From NCBI GenBank assembly GCA_010093815.1, contig ML996584.1: 64,000 bases of DNA; one strand, written 5' to 3'. Made by a program: the position numbers and the translations under genes. The DNA comes from Pseudovirgaria hyperparasitica. Its lineage: Eukaryota. The notes beneath the pieces are model-generated. The model made no database searches. It saw only the letters and a list, made by a program, of their open reading frames with translations, and was not told where the DNA came from. Shown here in pieces: positions 1 to 61,830 of the stretch (positions are counted from its first letter, which is position 1; each line of letters begins with the position of its first letter).

Positions 1-1290
1 AGAGGCATAACGGTATTCGTGGGGGAATTGTCTATATTAGTAATTATAGGCGCACCTATCTTTAATACTACTCTAATATTAGTATCTAGAACCATATATA
101 TATATATATGTCTAAGTATACTAGCTACGTCGTCTTCTATTTTAGTATCTTCTATATTCTCTTTCTCCGTATGTTCCGACGGTAACTATAACTATATCTC
201 TATAGNNNNNNNNNNTCTAAGTATACTAGCTACGTCGTCTTCTATTTTAGTATCTTCTATATTCTCTTTCTCCGTATGTTCCGACGGTAACTATAACTAT
301 ATCTCTATAGCTAGTGTGTTTGCGCGTAGATAAGCTTCGCTAGGCACGACGATATTTATAGATAGATTATCTATATCGGTAGTTATAGCCGTACCTATCT
401 TCGATACTACTCTAATATTAGTATCTAGGACCATGTATATATATATATATNNNNNNNNNNTTATAGATAGATTATCTATATCGGTAGTTATAGCCGTACC
501 TATCTTCGATACTACTCTAATATTAGTATCTAGGACCATGTATATATATATATATCTAAGTATACTAGCTGCGTCGTCTTCCATTTTAGTATCTTCCACG
601 TTCTCTTTCTCCGTATATTCTAATAGTAACTATAACTATATCTCTATAGCTAGTATGTTTACACGTGGATAAGCTTCGCTAGGCACGACGATATTTATAG
701 ATAGATTATCTATGTCGGTGGTTATAACCGCGCCTATATTCGATACTACTCTAATGTTAGTATCTAGAACCGTGTATATATATATGTGTCTAAGTATACT
801 AGCTACGTCGTCTTCCATTTCAGTATCTTCTATATTATCTTTCTCCTTATATTCTAGCGGTAACTATGTCTACGTACCTATACCTATAGTATCTATATCT
901 AGTTTAGCCTCTATTATATCTATGGTCGTAACCGTCGGTACTAACTTACTATTTATAGCCGCGATATGCTAATTGAATTCTCTAGTAACGGTTTCCTTAA
1001 CTATCCTATAGAGTATAGTAGTATCTATACTACTAGTTTTAAGCTCTATTACTACTTCTTTACTTACTATCTTAATAATAGTAGCCCTATATATATTATA
1101 ACTTATTTTAGATATTAGGTATGGGCCTCGGAGGTACTAGATGTAAGGTAGGAGGGCGCTAACGCTTAAGGCCTCCGCACGTTATATATACGTATTACGG
1201 TTAGCTATTCTATAGCTAGTAGTTAAACTAGGATAGTCGTAACTCTCGTTATGTCTATCTATTTCTATATACGACTTAGGCCATAGGTAG
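1..1290 (-). pseudogene. RIP-degraded unknown gene with 78-aa (234-bp) tandem repeats; runs off the window start
   Basis: Continuous minus frame (...HIAAINSKLVPTVTTIDIIEAKLDIDTIG...EDTEMEDDVASILRH...) with only TAA/TAG stops. 234-bp period (CTAAGTATACTAGCT at 556 and 790). Confidence 0.5.
30..870. repeat. 234-bp tandem repeat (~3.5 real copies; contains two 10-N scaffold gaps)
   Basis: Unit recurs at 111/216, 555 and 789. N gaps at 206-215 and 451-460 are each flanked by identical 95-bp overlaps. Confidence 0.85.
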
Positions 1291-2099
1291 TAAGACGGCG
1301 TTAATAGCGATAAGATATAAAAACTAGATTTAGGCGGTAGAAGTTAAGTCGCCACGTTTAGTAATTATAATATAATTTCGATAAGTGCGGAGGAAGTAAA
1401 GTATATAAGTAAATGTTTAATTATTAGAGTGGATCTTATACGATTACAGTCGTAGTAATAATATAGCTAGTAGGACCGGGCGTATCCCGACATGAACTAG
1501 ATAGACGCCGGCTTATACTAGTATTGTAATATCTTAACTAAATATATATACTATAGTTATATAGCTAGTAGAATCGGGCATATACTAATATATAGTAGGT
1601 AGAAGCCGTCTTACGTCGGATCGTATCGCCTTAGCTAAGTACGCACGCTACTCTTACTACCTCTAGCATCCTTTTCATTATTCTATTAGTCTTTAAAAGC
1701 GATATCTATATCCTCTATATCTAAGGTACTTTTAAGGCTTTCGAAGTTACTATCTTTAGAGCTTATAGATTGGTCTCGCGACTTCCCGGGTACTAATAGT
1801 AGTATATATAGTATTACTAGAGGAAGGGTTAAGTCGTTTAGGTGATGCTATCTACTACCTATAATACTATCTCTATGGGTATCTCTACCGTTATAGGCGG
1901 TGGCTTTCTATTACTATTATTATACTAATTATAGCGAGTATAGTATTAGGGACAGAGGGGCGGATTTATTCGAGTGTAACCTATATATAGCCGTCTATAC
2001 TATCATGTGTTAGTCGCTGGTTTATATTTCGTTTTACTTCGGGTATACTATCTATATCCTATCTAAGGCCGAGGAGTATTATACTATTACTATATTCTA

Positions 2100-2872
2100 G
2101 AATATATTTAATTACTAACTATAGGAGCCATCTAATATCTACCTCTAGTTCCGTTTTACTTATTATATACTTAACTACTAGCATGATAGAATATATAGTA
2201 GCACGGCTCTAGTTAAGTGCCCTCCTAGTCTTCGTTACGTATTAGACTCTAATTTACTATATAAATACTACCGAATTAATACACGAAGCGTCGCTATGGT
2301 CTTTCTACTAGTTAGATATAGGTACTAGTATTTCGAGGAATGCGTTATCGTTAAACCTAATCGTGAATTTGATTTTTCTCGTAGTATATATGTTAGTAGG
2401 CTATAGAACCGCTATAAGTATAGGCTATAAGGTCGTGGTATACGAGAGCTATAAGGTCGTAATAGATAGGGGTTATAAGGTCGCAATAGGCGGAGGTTAT
2501 AAGGTCGTGATAGGCGGGGATTATAAGGTCGTAGAATATAGGGCTATAATTACGCGCCTCTTCTTATACTCGGAGATAGTTTTTCTATAATATACGGTTT
2601 TCTATACTATAGTGCGTACCTAGTCGTAGATATGGTATAGCGCCTTTATCTCTATATACTCTACTACTCTTTCCTATACTACTAGGAATTCGCCCGCTAC
2701 CTTATTAATAATCTTATGTACTCTTTTTACGCCGAGCTCGTTCTTAGTTCGACGTCTATAGTCTACGAGTAGAGTAGCCGTATATACTTCTATATATAGC
2801 TACCTTATACGCGCCTCCATAGCTTCACGCTTTACTTATATATCTAGGCTTAAGATACGAAGTAGTATTATA
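2100..2872 (-). pseudogene. RIP-degraded unknown gene with 21-bp (TTxQPPx-like) repeats
   Basis: One minus frame reads ~255 codons with only TAA/TAG stops. 21-bp repeats GGTTATAAGGTCG.. at ~2420-2535. Boundaries approximate. Confidence 0.5.
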
Positions 2873-3937
2873 GTAATTACTATATTCGGACGGTTACTTT
2901 ATTATAGAATTAGATTTAATATATTAATTATATGTAGTTAACGTGCGTAGTTAATATAGTGTTTATAATTTATGGACTAATTATATAGTATACGCATGGT
3001 ATATCGTAGGCGTAAGAAAGATAGAGGTATAGATCGGACGATAGAGGTAGAAGCCGGAATAACAAGGCACCTACTAGGTAAACCTTGTTTATGTCCTTAT
3101 TATTCCTTAAACACACGTTTATAACACGTACGTAACTTGGCGTGGCGTGGTCGGGCGTGTAGTTATTTACTTTATATTATCTAATACCCTTAATAGAATT
3201 GGATAGCCATGATTCTTATCTTATAATATTATATCATAGGCGACTACGTCTAGGACGGTATATGGCTACGTATATACGAGGTGCCGCGTTAGTCTTATCC
3301 CATTTTATATTCATATACTTATCCCTAGGTACTCTCTAAGTATTATAAGTCTATATTTCGTCGTATTCGAGTGTCGTATCCTTCCATGCTTTTAAAATAC
3401 ATGATATTTAGGTTTACTATATCCCGTATATATCATGGTTAAAGTCTAAAGGTAGAGGCTTTGATTAGGGCGTATATTTTTTTATATTTTCTCTTTAGAT
3501 AGTAATATCTCCCGATATAAAGGCTAGAAGTAGTTTTAAAAGTATAAAGGGGATAACTAAAGGAAGCCTACGTTATTAGGCCGGGGCTCACGGTAGATAT
3601 AGAATTATATTTATTTCTTAATCGGTAGGTACTAGTTAACGTGCCTAGTGGCGCCGTATTATCTAATAGCGCGTCTATACTAGAGTAGACATAATAGAAA
3701 TACCCTTAATGGGTCTTTAATAGAGCTAAACTATCTACCTAGTAGGATATTATAACTATATCTAAAATAGATATAGAGGTATACTTACTAAGAAGCCGTG
3801 ACTAAGTAGCCCTAATATATAAGTCTAATTATATACTATTACTAATTAACTTCTATGTCTTTATATATCGTAATACCGCCGTCTCGGTCGGTATCCTCGT
3901 AGTCTTTATCGTTCTAGCCGCTAGTAGTTACTTCATT

Positions 3938-4022
3938 AGTAGTATTAGCTCTAGTAGTATTAGTTCTAGTAGTATTAGTTCTAGTAGCATTAGCTCTAGT
4001 AGTATTAGCTCTAGTAGTATTA
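3938..4022. repeat. 15-bp tandem repeat (AGTAGTATTAGCTCT, ~5-6 copies) in the helicase C-terminal tail
   Basis: Directly visible tandem array; pentapeptide repeat in the minus frame after the third knuckle. Confidence 0.85.
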
Positions 4023-6570
4023 ACTAGATTATTACTATTTATACGTGCTGGTAATTTAGTACGGCTGGGATAATAACGCTAAGTATAACTAGTAGTCCTA
4101 TAATTATAGTAAAACGTACCCGTAAGCGTCTTGGGTTTAGAGTAAACATTAGCTTTATAGCCGATGTCCTAATAGTTATTATATATAAGCGTCGACCCTC
4201 TTAGATACTTAATAGACTTATATCCTTTAACATTATATTTATAGTAGACTAGCGGCTTACGGGGCTTAGTACCATCGGTAGTTTATTAATCGCTTCGTTC
4301 TCCCCTCTCTCTAATACTAAGTATAGAGCGACCGTATTAGGGATTAGGTATATTAGAGAGTAGAGGGAGGCTATCTAGGTCGGGGGTCGTGCACGTGTAT
4401 ATCGCATGAATCTTAGAGTACTTATTCTATATCTTGCCGAGTACGCCGTCTAGGACTTTCTACCTCTTAAGAGATATAAAGTTAGTAATAATAACTATTA
4501 TCTATTTAGCGCGCGTAATAGTAATAATATTATAGTTTACTTCCGAGAGGAAGCCGAAGCGATTAGTTTAGACTAGGTCGATAAGGACTATATCGTTATT
4601 ATAACCCTAAGAACCGTCCCATGAACGCCATTGGACAAGCTTCTATACCGGCTTAGGTAGGGCATTAAATCGAGCTTTATCCGCTGCGGCAAGTGTAGTT
4701 AGAAGCGAGTTCCTAACTATCCCTTTAAACAGATTACGTTAGGCGGCGTATATAGAAATATAGAGTACGTAATCGAGTGCGACGCTATAATAGAAGAGCT
4801 TAGTAATAATCTACTAAGTGAAACGTAATAAGTCTATATTATATATTAAGTTATTTACCGTGTACACGTGATCCCCGTTAACGTTAGTATATATAACGTG
4901 TTAATAGCCGTAGATTCTAAATATTTATCGAACGGTCTCTGCGAGTAGTATATCGACATTATTTATTATATAGGGCGAGGTCGTTAGCTCACCTAAGTAA
5001 GTAATTAGCGATATAACGTTTATTATCCTAGGAACTAAGCGTTCTAACTCGGTAAGGCGAGTAGTTAGGAAACTATATTATATCTAGCGCTTTATGAAGG
5101 AGATCCTCTAGTTCACGGTCTATATATTAGTACTATTACGCTAGTAGATGTCGAGCTAGCGTAGGTCGCTAATATAAATAAATGTTAGTTACTATTCTAT
5201 AGTAGTATAATTAACGATAATCCTAAGTGTATTACTTTTAAGGATACACGTAGCCTCTTCTATTACGACCAAAATCGGATATATATTATAGACTACCTTG
5301 GCGATATTTATAATATATAGGGTCCCTATATAAATCTAGGCGTGGATAGTAACTAGGTCCTAGGTAGCGAGGTATAGCTTATTTATTCTATTATACTCCT
5401 TCTTAGGCATGTCCTTATTACGAGTATAACGTTTATAGATAGCGCGTAATAGCCGAGCCGTTTCTTTCTCGAAATTCTTAGAGATCTATTTATATTGGTA
5501 TTAAGATTTAACGAGTCTAACGACCTCGAGCGTAATATAACTAGTATATAGTTTCTATAGACGAGCACGGGGATCCGTGCTATATTCCGATAGTCGTTTA
5601 CTATAGTCGGCCTAGGCTTACGCGAGGATGGCACCGCCTATTATATTATTCTAGGTTGGCCCGATAAGAGGGTCGCCGCGACGAGATAGTCTAGCTATAG
5701 TAAAGAAAACCTCTCGATTAACGGCTTCGGGGCATCTTCGAAGAACGACCGGTATCTTTAGAGACTTATAGCGAGTAAATATATTACTTATATATTTATA
5801 TACTTTTCTTATAGCGTCGTTATAGGTTTCGTTAGTTAGGCTAATAATAATATATATATATATCCTATATATTTAGGTGGAACCTAGCGTAGGGAGGTGC
5901 GCTATTATATCGCTAGATAGGATAACTATCTTAGTAGTATAAGCGATAATAGGAGTACCGTTTATTTCGTTAATTAGAAGTATAGCTAGTAGTAGACGAA
6001 GCTATAAATAGCTCTTCCTAGCTTCTCCATAGCCATAAAGTAGAAACTAAGCCCTAAGTACGTCCGTTGCCTATATATAGGTATACCATTATTAGGGAGA
6101 TAGTTCCGAATATATAATATCCTAGAGATCGTGGAATCTTTTATAATCTTTAACGTAGCGGTTATAGTTAACGGGTTAAAGATTCAGGTAGTTATTACTA
6201 AGTATTAGGTTCTATACGGAGGGTAGTAAAGGGGATAGAATACTAGAGTGGACTTTAGACGATATTAGAAGTATATATATATCGGTGATAGGGCTAGTAA
6301 TAGAACCTTCGTCGCTAATAATATTATGACTATATTCTATATTCGTGTCCTTATTATTATCTAGGGATATAGATAATTTAGAAAGAGTAACGAGGGTATT
6401 CTAAGACTCTATACTATAATCTAGAATCTTATCGTTAGGGTTAGGGGACCTATATATTAGAGATATAGATACCGAGTCCATAATAACATTAAGGACTATC
6501 GTATTAAACGCATCCTAAGCGGCGTGGTCGTCTACGCCGCTATCTCTAGAAGCTTATACGGCGTAGTAGG

Positions 6571-6772
6571 TGTAATGGATATAACCAAGGTGTTACTGCA
6601 ATGGTAACCAAGATATATTATGATTTAACTTAGAGAGAATAGGGATAAGCCGTATGGTTATAGCTTTAAGTATAGTCTTAAGCGAGGTCACGTGATACCC
6701 CTATACTAGTCTCCATCCGTCCCGGCTCCGTTATATAATACTAGAGACAAGGCAAAGCCGAAGTCCATAATA
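6571..6772. mobile_element. Solo LTR (202 bp) inserted in the helicase relic
   Basis: Starts TGTAATGGA and ends TCCATAATA (RIP of TCCATAACA), an imperfect terminal inverted repeat. Flanked by the 5-bp TSD GTAGG at 6566-6570 and 6773-6777. Confidence 0.85.
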
Positions 6773-8224
6773 GTAGGTTAGTTTCTAGCACGTATTAATA
6801 CGTTACTTAGTAAGCTTATTATAGGTTTATACGCTAACTAAAGCCGGAACGTCCGTGAACTCTATAAGCGTGGTAAGGGACGACCTAATTATACTTAAAC
6901 TAGTATCGCTAGTCCGAATAAAATGTTTAGGACGAGCTCGAGTTATATTAGTAACCGTATCCATTAATATAATCGGTATCTTAGGTACTTTAGGAGGACG
7001 CCTAACCTTATTAAAGACTTTTAGAGCGAGGCATTCGAATAGGAGGACGCCTAGGCGAAATTAAAGGACTTTAAAGCGGTATACGTCGTTATTATAATCC
7101 TTTAAATCCACTTTAAGGTACCCACGACTACCTAGTTCCATATAATAGAATCCTTTCGTATCGATAGGATAGACGATAGCTAAGAGCGCCCGAGTAATAC
7201 CTAAGAGCTAGATATACCCGACGGTAACGTCTTGGAATTAGAATAATAGGAGATCCGTCTATTCGTCTTATAAGGTACTTATAGCGATATATATTAGGTA
7301 GTCAAATTTCTTATCGAATAACTCGCGGTAGGGAATAGAGATCTAGGGCCAAGTGTCCGGCCTACTTATTATACCGTATTATATATAGGGAGTAATAACT
7401 TCTATATACTATGAATTAATCGGATCGCTCTCTAGTTTAAGCTTATTATTAAAGCTAGTAAGATCTATAGGGTTACGTAGCGGTAGTAAGATACGAACTA
7501 TAGTATAAGTATCTAGATCTTCGAAGAATTGCTTTACTCGTTTATATATTATATCGGGTCCGACATATAATAGAATAGTAAAACCTATACTAAGAAGCTC
7601 GCTAGCTATAAGTTCGATAACCTAAAAGTCGCGAGGGTCTTTATAGAGGCCGGGATTAATATATAGTATATTGGCTTTATCCGCTTCGCTTATAATGAGA
7701 TTAGAAAGTTTAGAAAAATACTTAATGAAGTCGCCTACTTACTTAACCTTAAAGATCTATACTATAGAGTGGTCGGACGATAGGAGGATGTTAGTATAAT
7801 TGAAGCGGAGTAAGCTTATTAAGGATACTAATTTCCCTTCGTTAATCTATTAGAAGTAAGCACGTAACTTAATCTAAGAGCGGTACTTAGGGAATTCAAG
7901 GAATCTATATATATAACTAATCGACTCTTCGAAGCCGTAACCTTTACTATAAGCCTTAAATACTACTAGCTTAAGCTAGGCTTGAGTTTTCGCTTATTTC
8001 TACTTAAGTCTATCTGTTTCTCTACTAATACTATAGACATTCCTAAAGGTTAACTATAGATCGCTCTATATAAGAGAGATCTAATAGATAGCGTAAGTAG
8101 GAACGGGAGCCTTACTACTTTAGACCTTCTTAAGTTTATACTCGTCGTTAGGACGGTAGTTACTAGTAAGTATACTAAAGATAAGTGGTTTATTATCGGT
8201 TAAGATGGTAGTCGTATCGTAAGC

Positions 8225-8570
8225 TTCGACTTAAGTATAAGGCTCGGCTTAAACGTAAGGCTCGGCTTAAACGTAAGGCTCGGCTTAAACGTAAGGATTG
8301 GCTTAAATATAAGGATCGGCTTAAATATAAGGCTTAACTTAAACGTAAGGATCGGCTTAAACGTAAGGCTCGGCTTAAACGTAAGGATTAGCTTAAGCGT
8401 AAGGCTCGGCTTAAACATAAGGATCGGCTTAAGCGTAAGGCTCGGCTTAAACGTAAGGATCGGCTTAAGTATAAGGCTCGACTTAAATATAAGGCTCGGC
8501 TTAAAGGTAAGGCTTAACTTAAGTATAAGGCTCGACTTAAACGTAAGACTCGACTTAAACGTAAGGCTTA
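8225..8570. repeat. 18-bp tandem repeat (GGCTTAAACGTAAGGCTC, ~19 copies) encoding (E/D)PHVQA-like hexapeptides
   Basis: Visible array. The frame GAG CCT TAC GTT TAA GCC is continuous with the helicase frame; the ORF-track FKPSLT frame is a different one. Confidence 0.85.
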
Positions 8571-10079
8571 ATTACGTTAAGCGTAGACTAGTCCTAAACA
8601 TCGCCAAATATAACGAGTTCTTGATCCATATTATAAACTATAAATATAACCTCGTTAACTATTATATGGAATGGACCTTAAGGGTTAATAGAGTCGAGTT
8701 CGACGTAGTATTCGTATATAGTCGTAATTAACACGGAATAAAGTGTAGAAGGTAAGATTTAGGTTTAAAAACTAAGATAAGTAGAGGAAAGGTTTATAGA
8801 AGTTTTCTTTTATAACATAGGGACGACCAAAGGAAGCTAAGATTAATATAGGCTAAAGTAATAGTAGCTTAAGTAGTATATAAAGTGGGGTAGTATACTA
8901 CTATTATATGAGTCTAGTAGCTCGCCGACCGAGTATATAGTATATTATAGAAGGCTATTAAATCGGGGCTTAGGTAAATATAGGTATAAGTAAATAGTAT
9001 TATATAAAAGTTTAACCGTCTGATATACTAACGCTATAGACGCCGAGCCTATCTCCTAAATTCTACGGTAACTATCTCTTCTAGGTAGTAAGATATTACT
9101 AGCCATGCCTTGTCTATTCTATTTATGGTAGAGATACTATATATCCGTTAGTATACTAGCGCACGTGTCTAACTACCGCTTAAATATAACTTGCCTTATA
9201 CTATAATACGTACTATCGAGCCGATGTTATACCGATATTCATGGGTTTATATCTATAAACTCCTCTCCCGTAATATCGAAACCGGTAATATTATCTAGTA
9301 ATAGGACCATATAAGAAGGAGGCGGACTTAGTATATCTAGTTATATATAGACTTCTACTATCGCCTTAATAACTACTACGCTAGTAGGCGCTTCCTCCCC
9401 GGCCCTAAATAGTATATAATATTAGACTTTTACACGTTCGCTCGAACTCTCGAGTGTACCGGTATTATATATTAATTCGTAAGGTAATTAGGTTATAATC
9501 GCTAGTATATTAATATCGACGGGTAGAGTAGGCGGGACGGCGGCGCTCGACTCTCCTAATATAACGTTAGCTAGCTAATAATATAATAGATAAATATACT
9601 AGTCGCGTCGTCATTAACGTCTATCGTTTAAGTAGGTAAAGCGTTAACTACGCCTATATTAAGTAGACTAGGGCGTACCTATATACTATTAATAAAAGAC
9701 CTAAATCTAGTAAGGTATCCGCCGTATATATAATACTATACGTAACTAATAACCGAAAACCTAAGATATATAAATGGTGTTATGTCCACGGAAGAGCGAC
9801 GGTATTATACCGGTATATACCGGATATACCGGCATACATTAGTATACACCGCTTAGTAGTCGTAATATATTAATATATGCCGATATCTATCGGTGTATAT
9901 ATATCTCGAGCTTACCTACGCGCGCTAGATAGATGAATCCCGCTACTATACTTATAGCGCGACGTTCCTATATGGTTAGATTATAGTTAATACGTTATAG
10001 TAGGCTTCTAAATATACCGTTTATATCGCCTACGCGGAAAACCACCCGATCTAGTCCTAAGCCTAGTACCTATTTAATA

Positions 10080-10850
10080 GTCTACTATAATACCTAGTCT
10101 AAACTATCCTTACGAAGGATTATATTACTCGACTCGCTTAGTAGAATCGGGTACTCTAGGTAGACGCGACTATACCTATAACCGCCTATATCCTCTAGTG
10201 CATCCATAGACGAGCTAATAAATTCTAATAGTTTATTTATACTAAGACCTACTATATCGCGTATTTTTATACCCTTAATATTTAACGGCGTCGTGCCATT
10301 CTATATAGCCGTTATTAGTACTAGGGTGACCCGAGTATAATCGCGGATAAGGACTATAGGCATACGTATATAACACGGCGGCACGGCTACCTTAGAAGAT
10401 ATAGATACTAGTGGTCCGACGGTTAAATAACTAGGTTAGCTAGATATATTAGGCGGGTTCGTGGGGTATATATAATATTATAATAGCTTATCTAGCTCGG
10501 GGTATCGTTTTAACGTATATAATAGTATTTAGCCAACCGCCGCTAGTTACGCGTAAATACTAAGAATATAGTATTAAGTTAATACATGGTATCTACCCGT
10601 AAAATAGTATAACTACTGTTAATAAATATATATTTATCTGCGACCGTCTATAGGCAACGCTCTCGTTTTATATGGTAGTCCTTTACTTTCTTACTACGTA
10701 GGTTTAGTAATAGGCTAGTAAATTCCTTCTAAATCAACTCTTCTATGTATACCCGAAGTTTCTACCTATCGGACGCTCTAAATATATAAAGTAGGTCGAG
10801 ACTCGCTTCTACTCGGCTATTTATTCGCGGCTGGCCGGACGTAGCTATAG
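10080..10850 (-). pseudogene. RIP-degraded unknown gene, probably two exons
   Basis: Minus frames (M)ATSGQPRINSRVEASLDLL... and ...ELDKLL..YPTNPP...VYLEYPILLSE... carry only TAA/TAG stops. Function not recognised. Confidence 0.4.
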
Positions 10851-11827
10851 ATAGACGGAATAGGGAATAGTATATATTACTAGGGTAATAGAGAGACGAG
10901 ATATATATACTATATAATAGGTGTAGGTATAACACGTACGTTACGGCTATATTAACGCGAGTAGTCTATATAGTTATTAGTAATAACTCGTTAATTTAAT
11001 GGAGGCGGGGAAATATACGGCCGGTATCCGATCCTATACTAATATAGGGTACGTGAAATAACGACGTTAAATATATAATACTCTATATATAACGTTAAGT
11101 TTACCGGGCGATGGCCCTACTCTAGTAATACTATCTATATATAATAAAAGAGTAGCGTAGTATATAGGTATAATAGGATAGTAGACCGTCTTTACGACCA
11201 CGTGGATCTACCGCTAAAGAGGAATACTATAAGATCTAGTATATACTATTATAAACATACTATTATCTATTATATTTAGGTATACTAACTCGGTATACGC
11301 GAAATATAGATAACCGCTAACCCGTCGTGGTTCGCTATCATTTAAAGCCTAACGAGTAGAACCAAGGAATAAATAGTAGAAATAGTTAGACATAAGAGTT
11401 TTTAGCGATTAGAGGATAGTCTAGGTAGCTTAAGGGAAGGATAGAGGACCTCCGCGAAGCATGTACTTATATAATATTAATATATAAATATTTAAGAGAA
11501 GTACGTAATGCTAACTATTATCTCTATAATAGATTATTATTAATTAGTACTATTATTAAGAAGAGATAGATAAGCGTAATGATAAATAATCGTAGTAGCG
11601 AACCCTTATATTAAACACGAATAATATAACGTATTAGTATAGTATATTTATCTATTACGAGAACGTACATCTAGTTACTATAGTTTCTAACGGTCTATAT
11701 AAGAACGTATACATCGATAATATAGTAATATAAGTCTAACTATACTTATAAGGCTAGGGAAAGAATAAAGGAAGAGGAGGAGAAATATTAGAAGGGGGAG
11801 ATACTTAAGGAAGACGTTTCCCTAGTA

Positions 11828-11965
11828 AGAGCGTTATATACCCGGTATATACTTATTTATACTTATTTATATAGACTCGTTATATACCCGGTACTTATTT
11901 ATTAATAGACTCGTTACGTATCTAATACTTACTTAACCATAGACTCGTTATATGCCCGGTATCTA
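11828..11965. repeat. 34-bp tandem repeat (AGACTCGTTATATACCCGGTACTTA..., 3-4 copies)
   Basis: AGACTCGTTA recurs at 11873, 11907 and 11941, with a degenerate copy at ~11828. Confidence 0.8.
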
Positions 11966-12469
11966 ACGAGGCATAAACGCGAATAACGAAAATATTAGAA
12001 TCGGGTACGAGCTAGGTCTAGTAGGCCTAGAGACATAGTTTAGATTTTAGGGTATTAATATATATAATCTATCTATATTAGGTTAATACTATCCGTGTCT
12101 AGTTCCACCCGTGAATAAGGATTCTTTAAGTTCTATATACCTCTTTTAGAGGCGTAGAGTTTTTATACTAGCTAGTAATTATTAGGTAATAAGGAGGTGC
12201 ATCCCTAGATACTCCTTAGCTAAAATTATAGATAGTCATTAAATATAAGCCTTTTATAGAACTAATCGTAATAAACCACGATTATTCCTTAGAGATATCC
12301 TAGTATAGGATACGACTATCGAGTACTACTATATATAAACTATAACTTCCGCTATATACCGGTATATGCCGGTATACTACGGTAGACGGCGGTAGATAGC
12401 GATAGACTTACGACACGCGCCCGTGTTTTAACGCTACGGTCACGTTTCGTCTATTTATAGCCTAGAAGT

Positions 12470-15400
12470 CTAGGTTATATACCTCGTTATAGATCCCCTA
12501 ATTACTATACGTGTTTAACTAGAATAAACTATTTATAACTAACTAACGTAATATAATCTATATAGGGCGTAGGATATACTCTAGCTCGTAGACACGGAAC
12601 CTATCTATCATACGAGTCTTATTACTAGACCTTTAACCCGCTATATATAATAGTATAAGGCTACTAATAGTGTCGATATTACCTCTACCCGAGTTATTAA
12701 GTAGTTTAACTAACGTATCTAGAAATCGCGCCGCTATACTACTAGTTACGTCGATACTCTCCGTATTATATACCTCTAGAAATATACGGACTTTACTAAC
12801 CCGCTTCCCGTTAAGGTGGTTATTACCCTTATTAAACTCCTATACTATTATATAATTCTCCCTAGCCTTACTACTCTTTTACTAGTTATAGGTATACCTT
12901 ACCTAAATCGGGTCGAAGGCCTCTATAGATATATCTCTATCTAGTCGTATCGGCACGTATATAGTCTTATATATATAGATAGAAAGGACCCGTGCCTATG
13001 AAGGGTCCTTTTTAATACATTCGATATTCGTACCTTTTAATATATTATCTCTAATAAGCCGATTACGATAGTTACGTATAAAGGGTGTAACCGTATTAAG
13101 TAATATAAAACTACTACTATATACGTCGTGGAGGTCGCCGATAGTAGTCTAGTAGAATATAGATAGTCTATGGCTCTATAAGACGTAGAGTGTATATTTA
13201 CTCCGGCGTGGCTCCTTTAGAATACGCCGCTGGCCGACTAGCTTACGTGTATTATTAAGCTACTCTAGGCTAGGGGCTACTAATATACTAGTACTAGCCG
13301 CCACCTCTATACTACTAGAGATTTTAGTATTTATCGTGCGTATATCTACTACTAGTATCTACTATAGAAACGTCTCCCTCTTATTTAAACCTTAATATAA
13401 TTCCTTTACTACGATATAAGATTACTCTAGTAGCTCTACTAATATTAGATATAACGAACTATAGTGTTTAATAGTATTAACTAGGTGCGATAATATATAG
13501 AACTTTAGAAAGTTAAAATGATTATCCTCCGATTTATCTCCACGATATAGTATAAACTAGTATTTTAGGTCGTCTAAGCGTAATATAGTCTCTTCTAAGT
13601 ATACTAGTATCTACGTATTATACGTATAGTACGCCGCTAATATATATATATATTAATAACCGCCCGTACTACGCTTAGGAAGTGTTAATTATAATATAGG
13701 AGCGGTTTAAACGCGACTATAAACACTACTAGTATACGCTTAAACATTGCCCCCGTCCATTATATTACTAAAGTTATATATATAAGTAGGTTATGACGAC
13801 CGAATACCCTAATAGACGCGAATCGCTTATTAATCGCCTTCTTTACTCGTTCTATAGGGGGTATACTAGTAAATACACCCTTTAACTTATATCCCGTACG
13901 CTCTTAATTAATAATATACGAGACTATCTAATTAAACGTATGTTCTAATATACCCTTATATAGTTAATATAGAATGTCCGGAGCGACCGCGCGGTGTATA
14001 TTAACTCTAGTAAGTAACTAGGTAAAATTATCTAATGGCTCTATCCACCTACTAGAATACCGACTCTTAACCGATTAGCGAATATAATAGCCCTATACTA
14101 CTAGCGCGAAAGACGTCGACGAAAACGATAAGACACCGGGTATACTTATCCCATTATCTATCTTACTACTAGTGTACTTGCTACCGTAGCTATTAGTTAT
14201 TAACTTATAATATATACGGTAAATCTATTCCTATAACGACGAGTATATATGGAACTTCTATATACTAGTAATGGCTTCTCGTAGATACTATCGTCTGTTA
14301 CTAGGGACTATATATATTAGATATATATACCGATAGGATACACCCGTGATAAGCACCTACTCCGGAAAATCTATAATATATAAAGCTAAACGCGGATAGT
14401 ACTTACGCGAGCCGCTATCGGTATATAATACTAATACTCTAGTACTCTATATAGCCTATAACGCTATATAATAATTAGTATAGTTAACGACTCTATCATA
14501 GGCGGACATACGGGCTAGAACTTTACTTATAACCTAATAGAACATAAAGCGATTCGCTACCGTTTCTAGCTTAACTACTAGTAATAGAGTAAGTAGTAGA
14601 AATAATAGTAGACTCCTAGATAAGCGGACGTTTAGTAGTAGATTATAAATAGATAGGTAGACTAGCTATACTACTCTATTACTACTATAGTTAGTAAGGT
14701 TTATCTTATCCGAAGATAAAATAATAGGGATAATAATGGTACTATCCGGAATAGTAGCGTGTATATCCTACTAACTATCTACTATATAGGCTTTACTATA
14801 TACCCGGTTACCTAAACTAGTAAATTATCATACCGGCTTAAACACGAGCTTACTAGTAAACGGTTAGTATCTAAGAAGGAATTCCACTAACGTAAGCGGA
14901 TCTCTATACTAGTATTCGACTATAGTAGTACTAAATATATTATAGCTACGCTACTAACTTTCGTACGGTATCCCTTTAGGGTAGTATAATAACTACTTAC
15001 GTACGATATTAGATTTTAGTATAAAAAGGTCGGGGGGTATAGCGGAAGTCTATTTAAGGATAGTAGTTAATTTATCGTATACTATATTCGAAATACCGAA
15101 CCGATTCGTCTATATTATAAGGCGCTCTATAAACTTACTATTGAATTAACCGAATCGGGCCTACTAAATTAGTTACTACTATAAACCTAGACTATATATA
15201 CTTACGTCGGACGGATTATTACGTCTACTCTAGTCTACTATAATATATATACCGTTCTCCTCTTCGAACGTTTTTATTAAATATATAGTACTAGACGCCC
15301 TTATCGCTATAGACATAGTATTTCTACTATATATATTAGACTAATATACTAAATTAGTACTATGGCTACTAGTAACGCCGTCTATAGATTCTAGGTCCGA

Positions 15401-15770
15401 AATAGAATTAGGGAAAATAGTAGTATCTTTATATAGGGTAATATTAGTAGTAGAAGTATCTAATTTCATAGGCTCGGACTCCTAATTAATACTTAATAGC
15501 TAAACACTAATAGAGCGAACTAAAGAGTTCTATTAACTAATATAACTACGAGTACTAAAGCCGCGCCGTGACCCGGTCGATAGTAGTAGCCACGGGCCTA
15601 ATAGTTATAATAATAATGGCGATACGGTAAGCTATGCTCGTCTATACGGTTCCGAGTTATGGTGCCTACGGATTATATAGTATATACTACTAATCTTTCT
15701 ACTATAGTATTAGTAGGAGACTACGGCCCGTAGTATCTCGAGGTATAGTTACTATAAAGGAAAAATACTA
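12470..15770 (-). pseudogene. RIP-degraded Plavaka-family transposase
   Basis: De-RIP motifs in order: TIPDGTIVIPIILSSDKTNLTNYSGNRVAWPVYLSIYN (~14645-14755); CYPRLALYIVDFPEQVLITGV..CPIC (~14310-14400); VAPDILHQLYKGVLEH (~13940-13990); HFNFPKFHMLSHLVDTIKHYGS...E..H..KELYQGSNK (~13380-13520); C-terminal FWLNTYSDWGIYNEVY (~12480-12530). Ends approximate. Confidence 0.88.
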
Positions 15771-16007
15771 TAGTATAATTATTAGTGGATGGTAATAATA
15801 CGGTATACGGTAGATATTCTAGGCGTATACCGGAAGAAGTTAGGTGTAAGCCCGTTGAAAGCCCGATATATACCTACTAACCCCCGACTTCTACCCGGCT
15901 CTTAGCCCCTTGATTTCTATATACGCTCGCTTAAAATTATTAATAATAACGCGTAAGCATTACGCGTCTATAAAAACACTATATTAGTCTACGCCTAAAC
16001 CTTTATT

Positions 16008-18147
16008 ATGTCTACTAGCTAGTTATTATCCCGCTACCTAATATTATCGCCTAGTAGGTTACCGACCTATTACTAATGAAAATATCTACTAATCTCTTAT
16101 ATATCTTCTCTATAGAACCTCTAACACGGAAGACGGTTAAGGGACTATCTAGCTACCGTGGCGGTAATACTAATAGAAGATAATCTAGTAACTATAGTAA
16201 ACTAAACGGGATAGGTAAACGAAGATGCGATATAACGTAGACACGTATTAGTATTAATAATAGGGACTTACACGACAGCCATCGACATAAAAAATATATA
16301 TATATATACCTAGCTTATCTCGACGCGTTTGTTTATCTACTAATAACCTAGTAGTCTAGGTATACCGGTAGCGAATATAGTAGTAACGCCCTATACAGCT
16401 TAGACGTTACGGTAATATTCTACTATAATAGTAACTAGGGATATAACGGCCTCACGTCCTCTCCTCTACTATATTAGCTATCTAGCTCGATAGAAGAAGG
16501 TAGAGAAATAGTAGTAGAGAGGGAACTAACTATCCGTGAAAAGAGGCGGTTCTATAGAGATAGTCTCTAGTCTTACGAACGAGACCGGTACCTCGTAATA
16601 ATAGAGATTTCGATTACTATGACGTTTTTAGGCCGGTTACCACTAGTATTTAATTGCCTTAATATATGGCTAGATAGTAGCCTAGATAGTTTTAGGATAC
16701 TAGTATAATCGGCCTAGATAGCCGCCGGAGATATTAATCTTAGTAGCTACTACCTTAATTATAATTTATAAAACACACCTCCTATCTATATTATTACACT
16801 AGTAAAGGAAGATATAATAGACTTCCGTTACTAACTCCTCTCTAGAGTTAGATAGATAGTATCTAAATACTAGAACTAGGAGATAGCCAAGAAGAGAAAA
16901 GCTAGTATAAGTAACCTAATATATAATAACGCGTATATAGGAGTAAAGGTATGTTACTTACGTCATGTTAGATATATTACTAATTATTAGTATAATACTA
17001 GCGTAACTTAGAAAATGTTTATAGGGCTAGTAGTAATTAAGACTCTAAAGTTAGTTCTACTATAGTCCCTAAGATTCCTTAGATTAAAGGAGTACTATAG
17101 TAGTATATTCTAACCGATCCTACTATCCACGATTACTATTATATATATTATAATAAGGCATGCTCTTAACGAATATAGTAGCGGGCGGGCGCCGAACTCG
17201 TCCTTCGGTCGCTATAGATTCGCACGCTCTCTACTAATACTAGGTATATATATATACCTTTATCTAATTATATACTAAATTATATAGAGGAATAGCGAGC
17301 GCTAAGCCTAACATGGTCGAACTAGGCGCCCTACCGTATCGACTATATTTAAAAATCGCTAATAGCATCGGTATTTATAGTACTAATACTAATTAACCTA
17401 GACACTATATATATAAACCTATATAAAGATAACCTAGATAACTTCTCTAAAGTAGATATAGATAACTTAGACGAGAGCGAGGAGTCTAAGCTATCGGGTA
17501 ATATAAGTATATACTAAAGTTATAGAGACTATATAGATACTAACTACTATGAAAAGGATGAGTCGGATACTCTAAACTAGTTAGATGAGTGCCTCGAATC
17601 ATCTTATACGCTATTAGATATGGGTAAGAGTTCTATACTACTAGTAGTGGCTACGGATAAGATTATACTATCTCGGGTATTAAGTATAGACCCGCTCTAA
17701 GTAACCGCGGGAACGGTAAATAATAGTATATATATATATAGTATGAATAAGTCTATTACTAACTTATTATCCCTAGTTATAGCTACCTTAACTAGTAGTC
17801 TATCTACCCCGACCGATACTTAAATTAAAATAAAGTTAGATGGTGGCGGACGTTCAAGTCGGGTCTTTAACCTATATATAAAGAGTATATACTTTTAAGA
17901 GAAGTCGGATATTAGTATATAGCTAGGGAACTATATAGACTACCACGAGGCCGAATAGATAATATAAAAGAGAATAAAAATAGTAACTAGAAATATAGAG
18001 GGAAGTGTCTAGTGGAAGAAAAGGTTATTAAAGGTAGTTCTAGATAAGGACACCTTTTAATAGATAAAGAACACCGCCTAAAGGCAGAAGAAAGGAAGGT
18101 CTACTATATTTTATTATAGCTATATAGTCGGAGAGAGCTTAGAATAG
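16008..18147 (+). pseudogene. RIP-degraded multi-exon gene divergent from the transposase; DUF6532-like central domain
   Basis: TATAAAAA at 15969 and ATG at 16008. Intron-like GTATGT...CTAA...TAG at ~16949-16990. Segment PILLSTITIIYIIIRHALNEYSSG (~17115-17185) resembles the P.P..TIAL...AI..AL.EW.TG pattern of DUF6532 from memory. Acidic linker and basic C-terminal domain. Confidence 0.55.
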
Positions 18148-18510
18148 TACTATTTAATTTAAGTTCCTAGTCTAATTAATTTTTAACCTCTACTCTCTAT
18201 TATATACTATCTTTCTAGTATTAAATTTAAAGACTATAATTAAATATACTAAAGATATAATTTAGAATAATAAGATATATAGAGTTATAGAGATACTTTA
18301 GATAAAGATATTACTTTAGAAAAGAGACTTCTATTAAAATAAATAGAGTATATAGAGTAGATAGAGTAGGTAGAGTAGATAGAGAAGCTAAAATACTATA
18401 TACTATTTATTCTATAAGAGTAATTAGTATATAGTAAATAAGTAGTACTAGTAAGCTAATTAGTATTAAGAGAATAACTAGTACTAATTATCCCATTAGT
18501 ATAAACAGTA

Positions 18511-18690
18511 CGTTCGGTATAAACGGGACGTTCGGTATAACTAGTACGTTCGGTATAAACGGGACGTTTAGTATAACTAGTATGTTCGGTATAAACGGGA
18601 CGTTCGGTATAAACGGGACGTTCGGTATAAACGGGACGTTCGGTATAAACGGGACGTTCGGTATAAACGGGACGTTCGGTATAAACGGAA
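18511..18690. repeat. Subterminal 18-bp tandem array (CGTTCGGTATAAACGGGA x10)
   Basis: Units start at 18511, 18529 ... 18673, about 140 bp inside the proposed element end. Confidence 0.9.
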
Positions 18691-18832
18691 TACTTAGTAT
18701 AAATTGTATAAAGCCGTCCCGTTAGGATAGATAGTAAGTAGGTCCGCCTAATGGATATAATGGGATGAAAGAATACTTAGGGAGTACTTAGGAGTACTTG
18801 GAAGCGCTGTATCTTTCCTAATATAGCCCGTG

Positions 18833-21064
18833 ATTAGAGAGAAGTAATATATCTCCTACTAAAAATATATCTATATACTACGAATATATATCGGGTAGCG
18901 TGTCTTTGCTCTAATTATTACTATCGTCCTTATCTTTATTAATAATCGATAAGGACGTAAGATAGATTAGCGATAATTAGGTCCGCACGGCGAGATTCTA
19001 TACCTCCTTACTAATAGTTATAACTTACTAGTATAATTTACTATAGTATTATTAGAATATTAATATCTCCTTCTAAAAATTAAGGATAGGGTTTAGGCGT
19101 CTAAGCTAAGGTATCCCTAGAATTATATTCTATTAGCTAATATTAGCTATGATAAATTTATTAGACATCTACTATTTTATTATCTTTAAGTTATAAACTT
19201 CGTAATTCGTTATAGCTTTATCTAAAGTTCTAACTTTATATCTATTAACTATAATAGTTCGGCTAACTTTACTAAGATCGTACGATAATCTATACTCCTT
19301 TATAAGAATCGACGAAATATAGTTATCTTCTATACTAGTATCCACGAGGGCCTATATAGTTTTATTACTATTTACTATAGGTAATAATACTTTTAGTAAT
19401 ATTAGGTCTTTACTCGCTAGAAGGCGCTACGGCTCCTCCTAAGTATATATAATTTAGCTAAGGACGCGGTTAGGTCTTATATACTAGTCTATTCTTTTTT
19501 TAGATTCTTATAGTTAGATAAAATATATTCTATTTCTCTATACTTATAGTAATAAAGTGCGCTATAATCCTACTATTTTATAATAGGCGTTATATTTAAG
19601 TCTATACCTTATTCTTTTCCGTGTTAAGAAGTACCACCTTAATTATTTTAGTATCCTCTTAACGCGTTTCTACCCCGATTTACGCTCTTCTAGTACTAAT
19701 TATAGTAAGGTTACTCTTAATCGAACGTATTTAATCGACCTCGTTTCTAACCCGTATAGAGTTTATCGGTTTTACCTAGAGAGCCACGTTCCTTAAGGAT
19801 ACGGTAGTATTTATTAGCTTTCTCCTCTAATTCGTGTAGATAGTTAAAACTTAATAATACTATTTCTAGTCTTTCGTGGATTAATAGAAGTAGTACTTCG
19901 CGAAACTAGAATATACGAATATTTTTCTATAGTATAGGGATATTATTCTATAGGTTTTAGAGGTATTATAGTAGTTAAGTAGGTGTCTAGTTCGGTCGTT
20001 ATACTACGCTTCTTAACTTAGATAGTGCCTTTCTTTTACGTTCTCTATCTGTTCCGAGGGTATTTAGTATAAATATAGCTAAATATTCCTAGGTTATCGT
20101 AGATAGTAGCTATACTTCCTTCTATCTATTCTATTAATTATAGGATTATAAGTCTAGGTATCGTTCTCTAAATAAAATATATTATACTTTAGTAGAAAAG
20201 AGTAGAGGGTTATCGAGGAAGTACTTTTCGTAGTCTCTCTTCTAGTCTTTCTACTCCTTTTAGTTCTTCTCTATAAATATAGTCGGGTCTTTAGATTTTA
20301 GTATACCTAGGGAAGAAGTAGAGTAAATTAGTAACGAAGCGGTCGGATATATAGTGGATTATTATAACTCTAATAGTAGGTGAACTAATTCCGCCTAAAT
20401 TAGTATAGGAAGTCGTCTATCTACTATCGTTTAGCGTAGTTCTTTAAGAGACTCCTTAAGTTCTTATCTCTTTACGAGGAGTTTCGCGCGTTCTATCTAT
20501 TCTTTAAGGGTTTAAATCTCTTAAGTCTAATTCGTGACGTATTTCTAAAGTTTAGTAATAGTTTATTATAATACCTCGCGTGGCTCTACCACGACTTATT
20601 ATCCGACTTTATATTATTAGAAGTTACTCGGCGTATCTACTATTTCTTTATCTAAAAGCTCTATGATTTAGTCTAATATTTCTACTTCTCGGTTAGAAAC
20701 GGCCGGGATTAATACCAATTATAGAGGATCCCTATTATTTAATATAGTATTACTTATCTCTATAGTAGATCGTGTCAACCTTCTCAGTTCTAGTTAGACT
20801 ATCTTAACTATAGTACTATATAGAGAGTAATTTAAATATAAGAATAGGGTTATTAGATAGTAGTATAGTTAGATAGAATAATAGGGTGTATTCTATTATA
20901 GAATAAATTACTACCGAACCCTTTCGGTAGGAATCCGAGAGTATATATATAAAGAGACGCCGATCTATCTAGTACGTGACTATTTACCGCCCTTTACGTT
21001 ACCTCCTAACCCTATTAGCTAAGGTACGTGTAGATTAGGTTCTATCTAAGGCTAAGTTCTAATA
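18833..21064 (-). mobile_element. Ty3/gypsy LTR retrotransposon 5' part (LTR, gag, protease, start of pol), RIP-degraded and interrupted at 18833
   Basis: Reverse complement of 61831-64000 (18895-21064, same length). Protease ALVDT(G) at ~19330-19352. pol reads LPD(V)YS(Q)Y(A)D(V)F(S)... up to 18833. LTR ~20837-21064. Confidence 0.88.
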
Positions 21065-22345
21065 ATATACTCGACGAATAGTACCTAAAATAGATATATA
21101 TATAGACTATTACTAGCTAGCTAAGCGACTTACTTATTGGCGAGTCGGCGACGAGTAAGTTACTTAACGAGTTTGTAAAAAAGTCTTCTAATCTCCTTAA
21201 CTTTAGTAACCTCTCTACTATCTCTACCTTATCTAAACCTCTCTAAATTAGTAACTACCTTCTACCGGAGCGTCTTATTAATATAGTACCTATCTATAGT
21301 ATATTTAAAGAAGCGTAGAGCCTACTAATTAGCGTAGCTATATATAAATATAATATAGAGAAAGTTCTTAAAAGTTCGAGATTACTAACGTATCTAGGTA
21401 TACTACCTACGAATCTATACCTTTATTACCGCCTATACAAGCTTAATAGAATTAAAGTTAGATAAGTATAGTAGCGTATACCGTATAATATAGCTAGCGC
21501 TAAGTATAAGTGGCTTAATCTATTAGTTTATATAAAGTGCGAGATTATCTATAATAATTATTATTATACGCCCGGGGTATTTTACCTTAAGGGTAGGTAA
21601 TAGATATACTTATAGCTAGGTATAGAACTTATCCGTTAAGAAATAACCTTCCTTTATCTAATAGTAGATAAAACCATTAGCTATAATAGCTCTATATACG
21701 CTATACGTAGGTCCTCGATTAAGAGTACTAATCTTAGTTAGAGTCTATCCTTTTAGTACTCTAGCTTAACGCCTCTATCTAATTTTCTTATTAAAAATAA
21801 CCTTATCTAAGAAGATATATAAGTCTACTAGTAGCTCCGTGATATCCTTAAGGTATAAAGTACGCGCTATCTCTAAGCGCGTACTACTAATACGTTTTAA
21901 TAGCTTACGATCCTACCCTTACTCGGATAACTCTTTAGATAAAAGCTATTTAGATATAGTAAGATTAAACTCTTTATATATCTATCTAGCTATCTTATTA
22001 AGGTATAGCTAGCCCTTACGAAGTAGTCTCTTAAGTAGTTATTATATTATATAATCGCTTAGTTAATAAGGTAGACCATAACGTATTAACCATGGTTTAT
22101 TTCTCTATCTATATATCTTAAGGTTAAACCTTATTCTATATACTATATTCTTACTAACTTTAGTAATAGCGATAATCTTATTAATAGATATATTATGTTA
22201 TAGAAGGAAGTCGATTCGTCCGTATACGGAATCAGGATAGATAATACTCTAGGGTACTATATATACACGCGTTAGTAAGTTAAAAATACTAAATATTATA
22301 TATACTAACTCTTATATACTATATTATATAGTTATAGACTCTATA
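21065..22345 (-). mobile_element. Tc1/IS630-type (DD34E, DDE_3) DNA transposon relic
   Basis: Minus frame from ~22260 de-RIPs to ...IFLDE.IFNEK.GWRR.AR.PKG...IIMDNLALH...YTPPYSPDFNPIELVWAVMK.WIRR, with 34 residues between the second D and the final E. About 1.3 kb long; TIRs not resolved. Confidence 0.85.
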
Positions 22346-23113
22346 TATGTGTAGTGCGGTGACGATGCCGTAAAATGTTAATTATATATAAAAACGCGTG
22401 TTGGTGGCACAGACGTGCATCGGGCGCCAAGCTTTCCCATGTAACTATGGACAAACGGATCCTTCTGCAGACTCCTTCCGACATGCTGCAACACCCTCGT
22501 TCCATGGTCCACGCTGACAGCCCTGTTCAAACGCTCTATGATCCAATAATCCGAAGTTATTACCCGGTACGCTCGGAAACGGGTAGCGGCAGCGTGTGAG
22601 AAATAATATGCCATGTGCGTGAGAAGTGTGAATGCCAGGAAAGATGAAATGCAAATATCATTCGAAAAGTAAAATCCTCTTCACCGTAACCAATAGCCAT
22701 TCTCCTATGTGGAGTATGCTGCACGCCAAGAAGAACAAAGGGGCACAGTGTAACCATCCTATCCTGTCGTTGATCAAAACAAATGCTCACGAATTGACTC
22801 AATAGTCCTGTTTGATATTGCTTCTTTGCAGCATCCTCACCGTCCATTTGGGCCTAGCACAGTCTGGAAGTCTGGATTGTAAAGCCGAGCCCAAAAGTCG
22901 TTGTACATGATGTGCCGCTTGCACTTGCTCAATAGCTGGAACTAGTGGCGTATAAGCATGCTGCACATTGGAAGTCCAAAGACTCGACGACTGATTTCTG
23001 GGTCAGACAAGAACGGTCATCCGGGTTCCTGGAACGAAATTTCGGTGAGACTATGGTGATTTGTGTGTGTTCACTCGCTTACCGGTTCGCCTGAAGATAG
23101 CAAATCGTCAACC

Positions 23114-61496: not shown

Positions 61497-61830
61497 CAGT
61501 AACTAAGTTGACGTACCTACTAATGAGCCAACCTACTAATGAACCACGTGATTTAAGTACGACTCCAAACGCCTATATTAATAACTATATACTTAAAATA
61601 GAGGGAATTTATATAAATAAGCCTTATATACCTCCTTAGAGACTATCTATCTAGTCTATAGTAATTAAGTCTCTAATTCCTTAAGCTTTTCCGTACGTTT
61701 AATAGCTTAAACTACCTCTACTACTACCTTCTTCTTCTCCTTATCTATAGCCTTCTTTATATATATAATATTTATAAATTACTTATTAAGGTCTATTTTA
61801 ACCTTCTTCTATTTCCTCTTTTAGACTAGG
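61497..61830 (-). mobile_element. 3' end of a Fot1/pogo-like DNA transposon relic
   Basis: TA|CAGT at 61495-61500, then repeated ACCTACTAATGA(G/A)CCA. Minus frame de-RIPs to KRKQKKVKIDPNKQFANI..IKKAMDKEKKK, like Fot1/Pot-type transposase C-termini. Cut by the gypsy at 61830. Confidence 0.6.

Follow-up and report, generated by a model that had tools for sequence, protein, structure and literature searches.

A probable giant Plavaka-lineage transposon, degraded by repeat-induced point mutation, in the fungus Pseudovirgaria hyperparasitica

Large gene-carrying mobile elements of ascomycetes are now discussed almost solely as Starships, elements usually found in one or few copies. Large elements of another kind, the giant Plavaka families of red algae, make up ∼36% of a red-algal genome; they are 17.4–19.1 kb long and contain three accessory genes (PAG1–3) and tandem arrays (bioRxiv 10.1101/2025.02.11.637652; this and the other papers below are cited from extracts). 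Plavaka belongs to the CMCT clade of DDE transposons (PMC12730594). We analyzed a window of 64,000 nt, i.e. the whole stretch of DNA considered here, from contig ML996584.1 of Pseudovirgaria hyperparasitica (GCA_010093815.1). Its positions 1–18,832 are probably a copy, represented by its right-hand part of at least 18.8 kb, of a giant Plavaka-lineage DNA transposon family that reached dozens of copies and was killed by repeat-induced point mutation (RIP).

This locus resembles the giant Plavaka elements of Bostrychia and Chondrus in its transposase, its place in the 17–19 kb size class, its accessory genes and tandem arrays, and its many, mostly degenerate copies: at least 18.8 kb lie at one contig depth, with candidate helicase and DUF6532 genes and with arrays. 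The accessory set and the host are different. In red algae, PAG2 encodes N6-adenine methylase (PF01555) and SET (PF00856) domains, and PAG3 encodes ParB-like and 2-oxoglutarate (2OG) oxygenase domains (bioRxiv 10.1101/2025.02.11.637652). Here, we see a superfamily 1B (SF1B) helicase with CCHC zinc knuckles and a DUF6532-type gene, in a RIP-active fungal host where the element was inactivated by RIP. The PAG2 and PAG3 domains had no Pfam match in six frames of 1–22.5 kb, a scan whose sensitivity is lowered by RIP damage.

Plavaka families of fungi are closer in host. Their termini, as given in the extracts of PMC12730594, are TGT..ACA with a 2-bp target site duplication (TSD) or CATCA..TGATG with a TSD of 2–3 bp; CAC..GTG with a TSD of 3 bp is given there for EnSpm. 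Truffle (Tuber) Plavaka elements have CATAC terminal inverted repeats (TIRs) and 2-bp TSDs (PMC12581995). Carriage of extra genes is known in fungal Plavaka: some Agaricales families (PlavakaA/B) have a TET/JBP gene; among Ascomycota, the extracts name only Helitron and IS3EU as found with TET (PMC12730594). The locus shares with these families the PF18759 transposase and a fungal host, and its apparent end would fit their CA..TG rule. Unlike the fungal Plavaka elements described in those extracts, it has a helicase, no TET/JBP gene was found in it, it is much more gene-rich and its apparent end is ...GCCCGTG.

The repeat unit and its copies

The window holds two AT-rich compartments, ∼1–22,400 and ∼61,500–64,000 (GC 0.28–0.37), both with a strong RIP signature, and a 39-kb island between them that has GC near 0.5 and normal RIP indices. 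Over 1–22,000, TpA/ApT was 1.55–1.78 and (CA+TG)/(AC+GT) was 0.10–0.27, versus 0.52–0.85 and 1.12–1.45, respectively, in the gene island (22–60 kb). Damage of the CpA-to-TpA type is that of Pezizomycotina. An earlier reading of the letters alone (below, the sequence-only reading) had seen RIP damage across 1–18.8 kb; both dinucleotide indices agree, being strong over 1–22,000.

The main evidence for a single unit comes from public contigs (Logan) of two DNA runs of one sample, X1 and X2, which were placed on positions 1–20,000 at ≥80% likeness, so that copies diverged by >20% are lost from the depth count. From 592,746 records of X1 and 180,325 of X2 we placed 21,590 and 9,911 pieces, respectively. 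The X1 pieces fell into likeness classes of ≥99% (7,571 pieces), 95–99% (6,063), 90–95% (6,349) and <90% (1,607). Variable places showed 1,235 transitions versus 15 transversions in X1, and 1,298 versus 16 in X2; as the variation is almost all transitions, the pieces represent RIP-diverged copies rather than chance matches.

Summed depth was flat over the 28 bins of 1–18,676: the mean was 23,823 with a coefficient of variation (CV) of 0.18 in X1, and 10,273 with a CV of 0.19 in X2. Bins 1–18, on the helicase side, differed little from bins 19–28, on the transposase side (ratios 1.07 and 1.11). The last two bins rose to 180,563 and 291,357 in X1 and to 67,827 and 105,569 in X2, the last one being 12.2 (X1) and 10.3 (X2) times above the flat level. 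At single places in X1, depth changed from 29,467 at 18,706 to 102,431 at 18,995. A true change of family is therefore seen as a tenfold step; since there was no step at 8.6 kb or 12.4 kb, the profile speaks for a single repeat unit, at least 18.8 kb in length, rather than for a mosaic of unrelated repeats. Relative to a median depth of 312 and 204 for single listed contigs, the flat level corresponds, as a rough estimate, to ∼76 and ∼50 copies of the unit. The suggestion that the non-transposase parts were multicopy is thus confirmed by the contig depth of both runs. Within the 64-kb window, there was no second copy of 1–18.8 kb.

Four contig joints (6558>6770, 15452>16415, 4189>15695 and 18820>18695) were set aside, being single contigs with short sides. 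At 3,906, 5,497, 2,868 and other places, the window's own letter was absent from all run contigs; the assembly may come from another isolate, or else it deviates at these sites from what was read in that sample.

The features of the unit are as follows (strandless features are marked 'no strand'; motif names of the helicase were read by eye).

1–18,832, no strand: right-hand part of the multicopy RIP-degraded unit (flat depth, transitions, RIP indices)
3821–8140, minus strand: relic of a long accessory open reading frame (ORF), one frame bearing all helicase and knuckle features
4070–4246, minus strand: three RIP-converted CCHC zinc knuckles, Y-x2-Y-x4-Y-x4-Y
4460–6046, minus strand: helicase core (AAA_12 Pfam match, local profile and motif places)
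6046–6011, minus strand: Walker-A-like stretch
5272–5249, minus strand: motif II-like stretch
5056–4481, minus strand: AAA_12, Pfam match of 30.4 bits, E 3.7e-7
4525–4505, minus strand: motif VI-like stretch
8238–8568, no strand: internal 18-bp tandem array, 18.4 copies
12,450–15,800, minus strand: relic of a Plavaka (CMCT-clade DDE) transposase, PF18759 core at 14,333–14,932; the outer limits are those of the sequence-only reading and unverified
16,050–18,100, plus strand: relic of a divergent partner gene, weak DUF6532 match at 16,787–17,206
18,499–18,688, no strand: subterminal 18-bp tandem array, 10.6 copies, with one inverted core copy at ∼18,716–18,722
18,707–18,994, no strand: zone holding the right boundary of the unit (depth jump between 18,706 and 18,995)

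The proposed right end of the unit, at 18,832 (...GCCCGTG), is plausible and lies inside the boundary zone, 144 bp beyond the end of the subterminal array. The array bears out the subterminal repeats of the sequence-only reading. With its end at 18,832, the unit would terminate in TG, which fits the CA..TG rule given for the CMCT clade in the extracts of PMC12730594. The expectation of ends starting with CAC is not supported: CAC..GTG is the EnSpm form, and the Plavaka termini listed there differ from it. Exact and transition-tolerant scans of the window revealed no inverted counterpart of the right end, and a repeat search of 1–22.6 kb revealed no long TIR or long terminal repeat (LTR) pair. 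A RIP-tolerant local alignment with the last 140 bp scored 58.5, with shuffles at 61.3 ± 3.9.

Genes and arrays of the unit

We translated 1–22,500 in six frames, reading stops through as X, and scanned the products against Pfam, RIP damage reducing the sensitivity of these scans. Only three credible families were found: Plavaka, AAA_12 and a sub-threshold DUF6532. There was no match to another transposase, a tyrosine recombinase, Rep, TET/JBP, a methylase or SET in these scans. Rfam and tRNA scans gave no match.

The PF18759 match of the transposase (91.2 bits versus a cut-off of 26.3, E 9.9e-26, profile positions 40–237 of 325) is well above the gathering score and bears out a Plavaka transposase on the minus strand. 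Its partner gene is indeed on the plus strand and divergent from the transposase, as had been proposed; its identity is less firm, the DUF6532 match being weak and below cut-off, and its reading frame shifts near 17.0 kb. Word-indexed protein searches with the RIP-damaged transposase and helicase gave no match; such a result is expected, because RIP destroys exact words, and is not evidence of absence. Just downstream of the 3′-end of the transposase gene there are two short repeats, one with a 34-bp unit in 3–4 copies (11,825–11,972) and one with a 10-bp unit of CGGTA type in ∼5 copies (12,350–12,408).

The accessory ORF runs from 8,140 to 3,821. Its ∼1,440 codons include 75 in-frame stops, and this stop density (5.2%) is the lowest of the six frames, although stop density discriminates coding from non-coding frames poorly in this DNA. 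From the N-terminus, the layout is ∼700 aa without matches, then an SF1B helicase core, then three CCHC knuckles. A 1,200-residue helicase query, searched exhaustively with phmmer, found only 8 proteins (E 1.4e-5 to 8.3e-4), all of them AAA_11/AAA_12 SF1 helicases; none of the 8 matches fell in the first 500 query residues. The profile made from these distant helicases matched 5,845–4,460 with E 5e-37, and nothing else in 1–22.6 kb, though this profile is not independent of the query by which its members were selected. A phmmer search of PDB with the helicase part gave 0 matches at E ≤ 0.01.

In the three knuckle patterns, all 12 key codons are TAY (TAT or TAC), and 3 patterns were observed versus 0.07 expected (none of 1,000 shuffles reached 3). 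Since RIP converts Cys codons of the form TGY and His codons of the form CAY to TAY, the three Y patterns are read as erased CCHC knuckles, in line with the claim of a zf-CCHC domain beside the helicase. The C-terminal tail of the same ORF has a 15-bp tandem repeat (3,921–4,022, 5.7 copies), which reads as a 5-residue repeat.

Of the four further minus-strand genes of the sequence-only reading, the one at 3.8–8.7 kb contains the helicase ORF; those at 10.1–10.9, 2.1–2.9 and 0–1.3 kb are without homology, with no Pfam match even at E ≤ 10. The minus frames of 0.9–3.9, 6.0–8.2 and 8.6–12.5 kb likewise had nothing in Pfam at E ≤ 10. At 2.1–2.9 kb, it is a plus-strand frame, overlapping a 24-bp tandem repeat, that is most open. 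The start of the window has a tandem repeat of its own:

1–911, no strand: tandem repeat with unit spacing of 105+234 = 339 bp and 10-N gaps at 206–215 and 451–460

This stretch is open in plus and minus frames because it is repetitive. Both 10-N gaps are flanked by 95-bp exact duplicates (111–205 = 216–310 and 356–450 = 461–555), which look like unmerged overlaps in the tandem repeat, an assembly artefact.

When the units of the two 18-bp arrays are compared in the same orientation, 12 of 18 bases agree and 3 more differ by transitions; a likeness as good arose in 58 of 5,000 shuffles. With RIP transitions allowed, the unit or core of the right-end array was found elsewhere as two weak 10-mers only, and motif maps (CGGTATA, CCCGTG and others) displayed no convincing cluster. 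A Pfam match to DNAJC11 (E 0.014, 15.4 bits versus a 27-bit cut-off) falls on the tandem array at 8.2–8.6 kb and was rejected as spurious.

Competing readings and related elements

Read as a single transposon, the unit carries a Plavaka transposase with a divergent DUF6532-type partner gene, a large SF1B (AAA_11/AAA_12) helicase gene with three C-terminal CCHC knuckles and, both internally and subterminally, an 18-bp tandem array, the two being related. The family would have been amplified to dozens of copies and then inactivated by RIP, and the present copy would adjoin a Ty3/gypsy element broken at the start of the reverse transcriptase (RT). The domains, the RIP damage, the single multicopy level and the boundary zone are shown by the data; we infer that the Plavaka enzyme mobilised the whole unit. 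The helicase may have been retained as an accessory gene, not captured by chance, and the 18-bp arrays are putative protein-binding sites. The earlier proposal of one gene-rich DDE-mobilised element is supported as to the single repeat unit and as to Plavaka, the sole transposase or recombinase found in the six-frame Pfam scans of 1–22.5 kb; the left terminus, TIR and TSD are not in the window.

Several observations weigh against this reading. The unit runs off the start of the window at full depth, and its left end, TIRs and TSD are not seen; its apparent end, ...GCCCGTG, matches no Plavaka terminus published in the extracts cited above; and the CACGCGC found at 12,413 is close to CACGGGC, the right end in inverted form, with 0.35 such matches expected by chance in 18.8 kb (a rough estimate). 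The DUF6532 match (21.3 bits, E 2.8e-4) does not reach the Pfam cut-off of 24 bits, and the nearest relatives of the helicase are only 21–26% identical to it (E 1e-5 to 8e-4). As for the contig evidence, the runs contain 61% (one) and 52% (the other) of the sampled words of 9,000–18,900, and they are possibly the source of the assembly itself. Summed contig depth is uncalibrated as a copy number and unfit for ranking parts; moreover, with contigs this short, only the assembly, which has N gaps, gives the order of parts across the 18.8 kb.

The missing left side leaves room for a composite, in which a Plavaka element of ∼6.4–10.6 kb (transposase, DUF6532 and arrays) lies beside, or is nested in, a separate helicase repeat that has equal copy number or was co-amplified. 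Such a shorter element could be bracketed by the related 18-bp arrays at 8.24–18.69 kb or start at the CACGCGC, and no link between a helicase and Plavaka is known from the literature searched. However, the arrays are direct rather than inverted, the 7-base match is at about chance level, and depth has no step at 12.4 or 8.6 kb (ratio 1.07–1.11), versus a tenfold one at 18.8 kb. By the sequence-only reading, a matching left terminus near 11.5–12.4 kb would have pointed to an element of ∼6–7 kb; near 12.4 kb we saw just this chance-level match and an unchanged depth. We consider a composite unlikely.

Absence of verified termini, together with full depth at the window start and with tandem repeats and assembly gaps in the first 911 bp, could also mean that the Plavaka gene is a passenger in a larger repeated block: a segmental duplication, a long repeat of tandem or subtelomeric kind, or a Starship whose captain is to the left of the window. 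No DUF3435 or other recombinase domain was found in 1–22.5 kb, and the dozens of RIP-diverged copies implied here differ from the one or few that are usual for Starships; we consider a larger block quite improbable. An assembly chimera of different RIP-diverged repeats, with a gene order that is not real, appears more improbable still. Exact 95-bp duplicates on both sides of the N gaps, the 52–61% of sampled words in the runs, and places such as 3906 and 5497, with a window letter absent from the contigs, speak for it; on the other side, the gaps are limited to the first 460 bp, 7,571 of the 21,590 X1 pieces are ≥99% alike across the stretch, and reading frames continue for kilobases (e.g. 3821–8140). 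The transposon reading therefore remains the one that we prefer.

Plant En/Spm (CACTA) elements are large, with more than one gene and subterminal repeat arrays near their ends. The unit is like them in these respects and belongs to a related DDE clade, but it has a DUF6532-like partner, no CACTA terminus (its end is not TAGTG) and no match to a Tnp2-type transposase, Plavaka being the only transposase match; it is not EnSpm/CACTA in the strict sense. AcademH DNA transposons, a DDE lineage of fungi and animals, reportedly encode a helicase in addition to their transposase, which is of a superfamily different from Plavaka. A Helitron is not indicated either, as there was no Rep or PIF1 match and the helicase is of the AAA_11/AAA_12 type.

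Starships, such as Enterprise (PMC8092012), are like the unit large gene-carrying mobile elements of Pezizomycotina; they are mobilised by a tyrosine recombinase and low in copy, whereas dozens of copies are implied here. No DUF3435 captain was found in 1–22.5 kb, the left part of the unit lying outside the window. ToxhAT, a 14-kb hAT-type cargo transposon of wheat pathogens (PMC6737239), offers a parallel as a DDE-type, TIR-bounded ascomycete element of >10 kb that has non-transposase genes and is subject to RIP. It differs in its superfamily (hAT), low copy number and effector-gene cargo. With ToxhAT, the truffle Plavaka and the giant accessory-gene Plavaka of red algae already in print, the suggestion that this architecture might be undescribed in ascomycetes proved too strong. 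The element type is known elsewhere; what is new here is the accessory set, helicase/zinc-knuckle plus DUF6532, in a RIP-active ascomycete. Our literature search, in which supplements of the Plavaka papers were left out, found no Plavaka element with a helicase.

If the transposon reading is correct, a DDE-mobilised family of at least 18.8 kb in dozens of copies would be a second route to giant elements in ascomycetes. Giant accessory-gene Plavaka elements, described in red algae, would be extended back to fungi, where their accessory set differs, and there would be a concrete family for asking what transposon-encoded helicases do. One could speculate further that a fungal giant-Plavaka lineage keeps the UPF1-like SF1B helicase and its knuckles as a working factor for transposition or for evasion of silencing, with the helicase or the DUF6532 protein binding the 18-bp arrays; this is a tentative idea, and we regard it as possible rather than probable. 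It would make the unit the first known member of the CMCT clade of DDE elements with a helicase of this sort, and, by the rough copy estimate, the family would have come to occupy something like a megabase in the genome of an ascomycete until RIP killed it. Units of this kind are easily split into several 'unknown' families, which calls for caution in repeat annotation.

The gypsy neighbour and the gene island

Beyond the boundary zone lies a much commoner repeat, present in ∼930 (X1) and ∼520 (X2) copies by the same rough ratio of depth to median contig depth. Two copies of its coding part are in the window.

18,833–21,064, minus strand: 5′ part of a Ty3/gypsy-like element, gag and aspartic protease motifs (read by eye)
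61,831–64,000, plus strand: second, inverted copy of this part, 92.5% identical over 2,170 bp and cut by the window end

In the first copy, a retroviral-type protease was recognized by eye at 19,351–19,097 and a pre-RT stretch at 18,904–18,821, both on the minus strand, so that gypsy-like coding motifs extend leftward to at least 18,863 and perhaps to 18,821. The gypsy part had no Pfam match at E ≤ 0.01 or E ≤ 1, and RT, RNase H and integrase are absent from the window. As only gag and protease are present, with everything from RT onward missing, the element is broken at the start of RT. The sequence-only reading had the unit landing inside a gypsy pol gene; protease and pre-RT motifs of the gypsy type agree with this, except that the element breaks off where RT begins and not far inside pol. 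The self-match between the two copies stops at 18,895 only because the window, ending at 64,000, cuts off the second copy, and it is therefore uninformative on the junction.

Between the end of the first gypsy copy and DNA of normal composition there are ∼1.3 kb of RIP-type AT-rich DNA (21,065–22,400), without a match to the other gypsy copy or to Pfam. The two inverted gag–protease copies bracket the 39-kb island, whose genes are ordinary; they include a fumarase-type lyase, a RasGAP, a cyclophilin-TPR protein and a methyltransferase.

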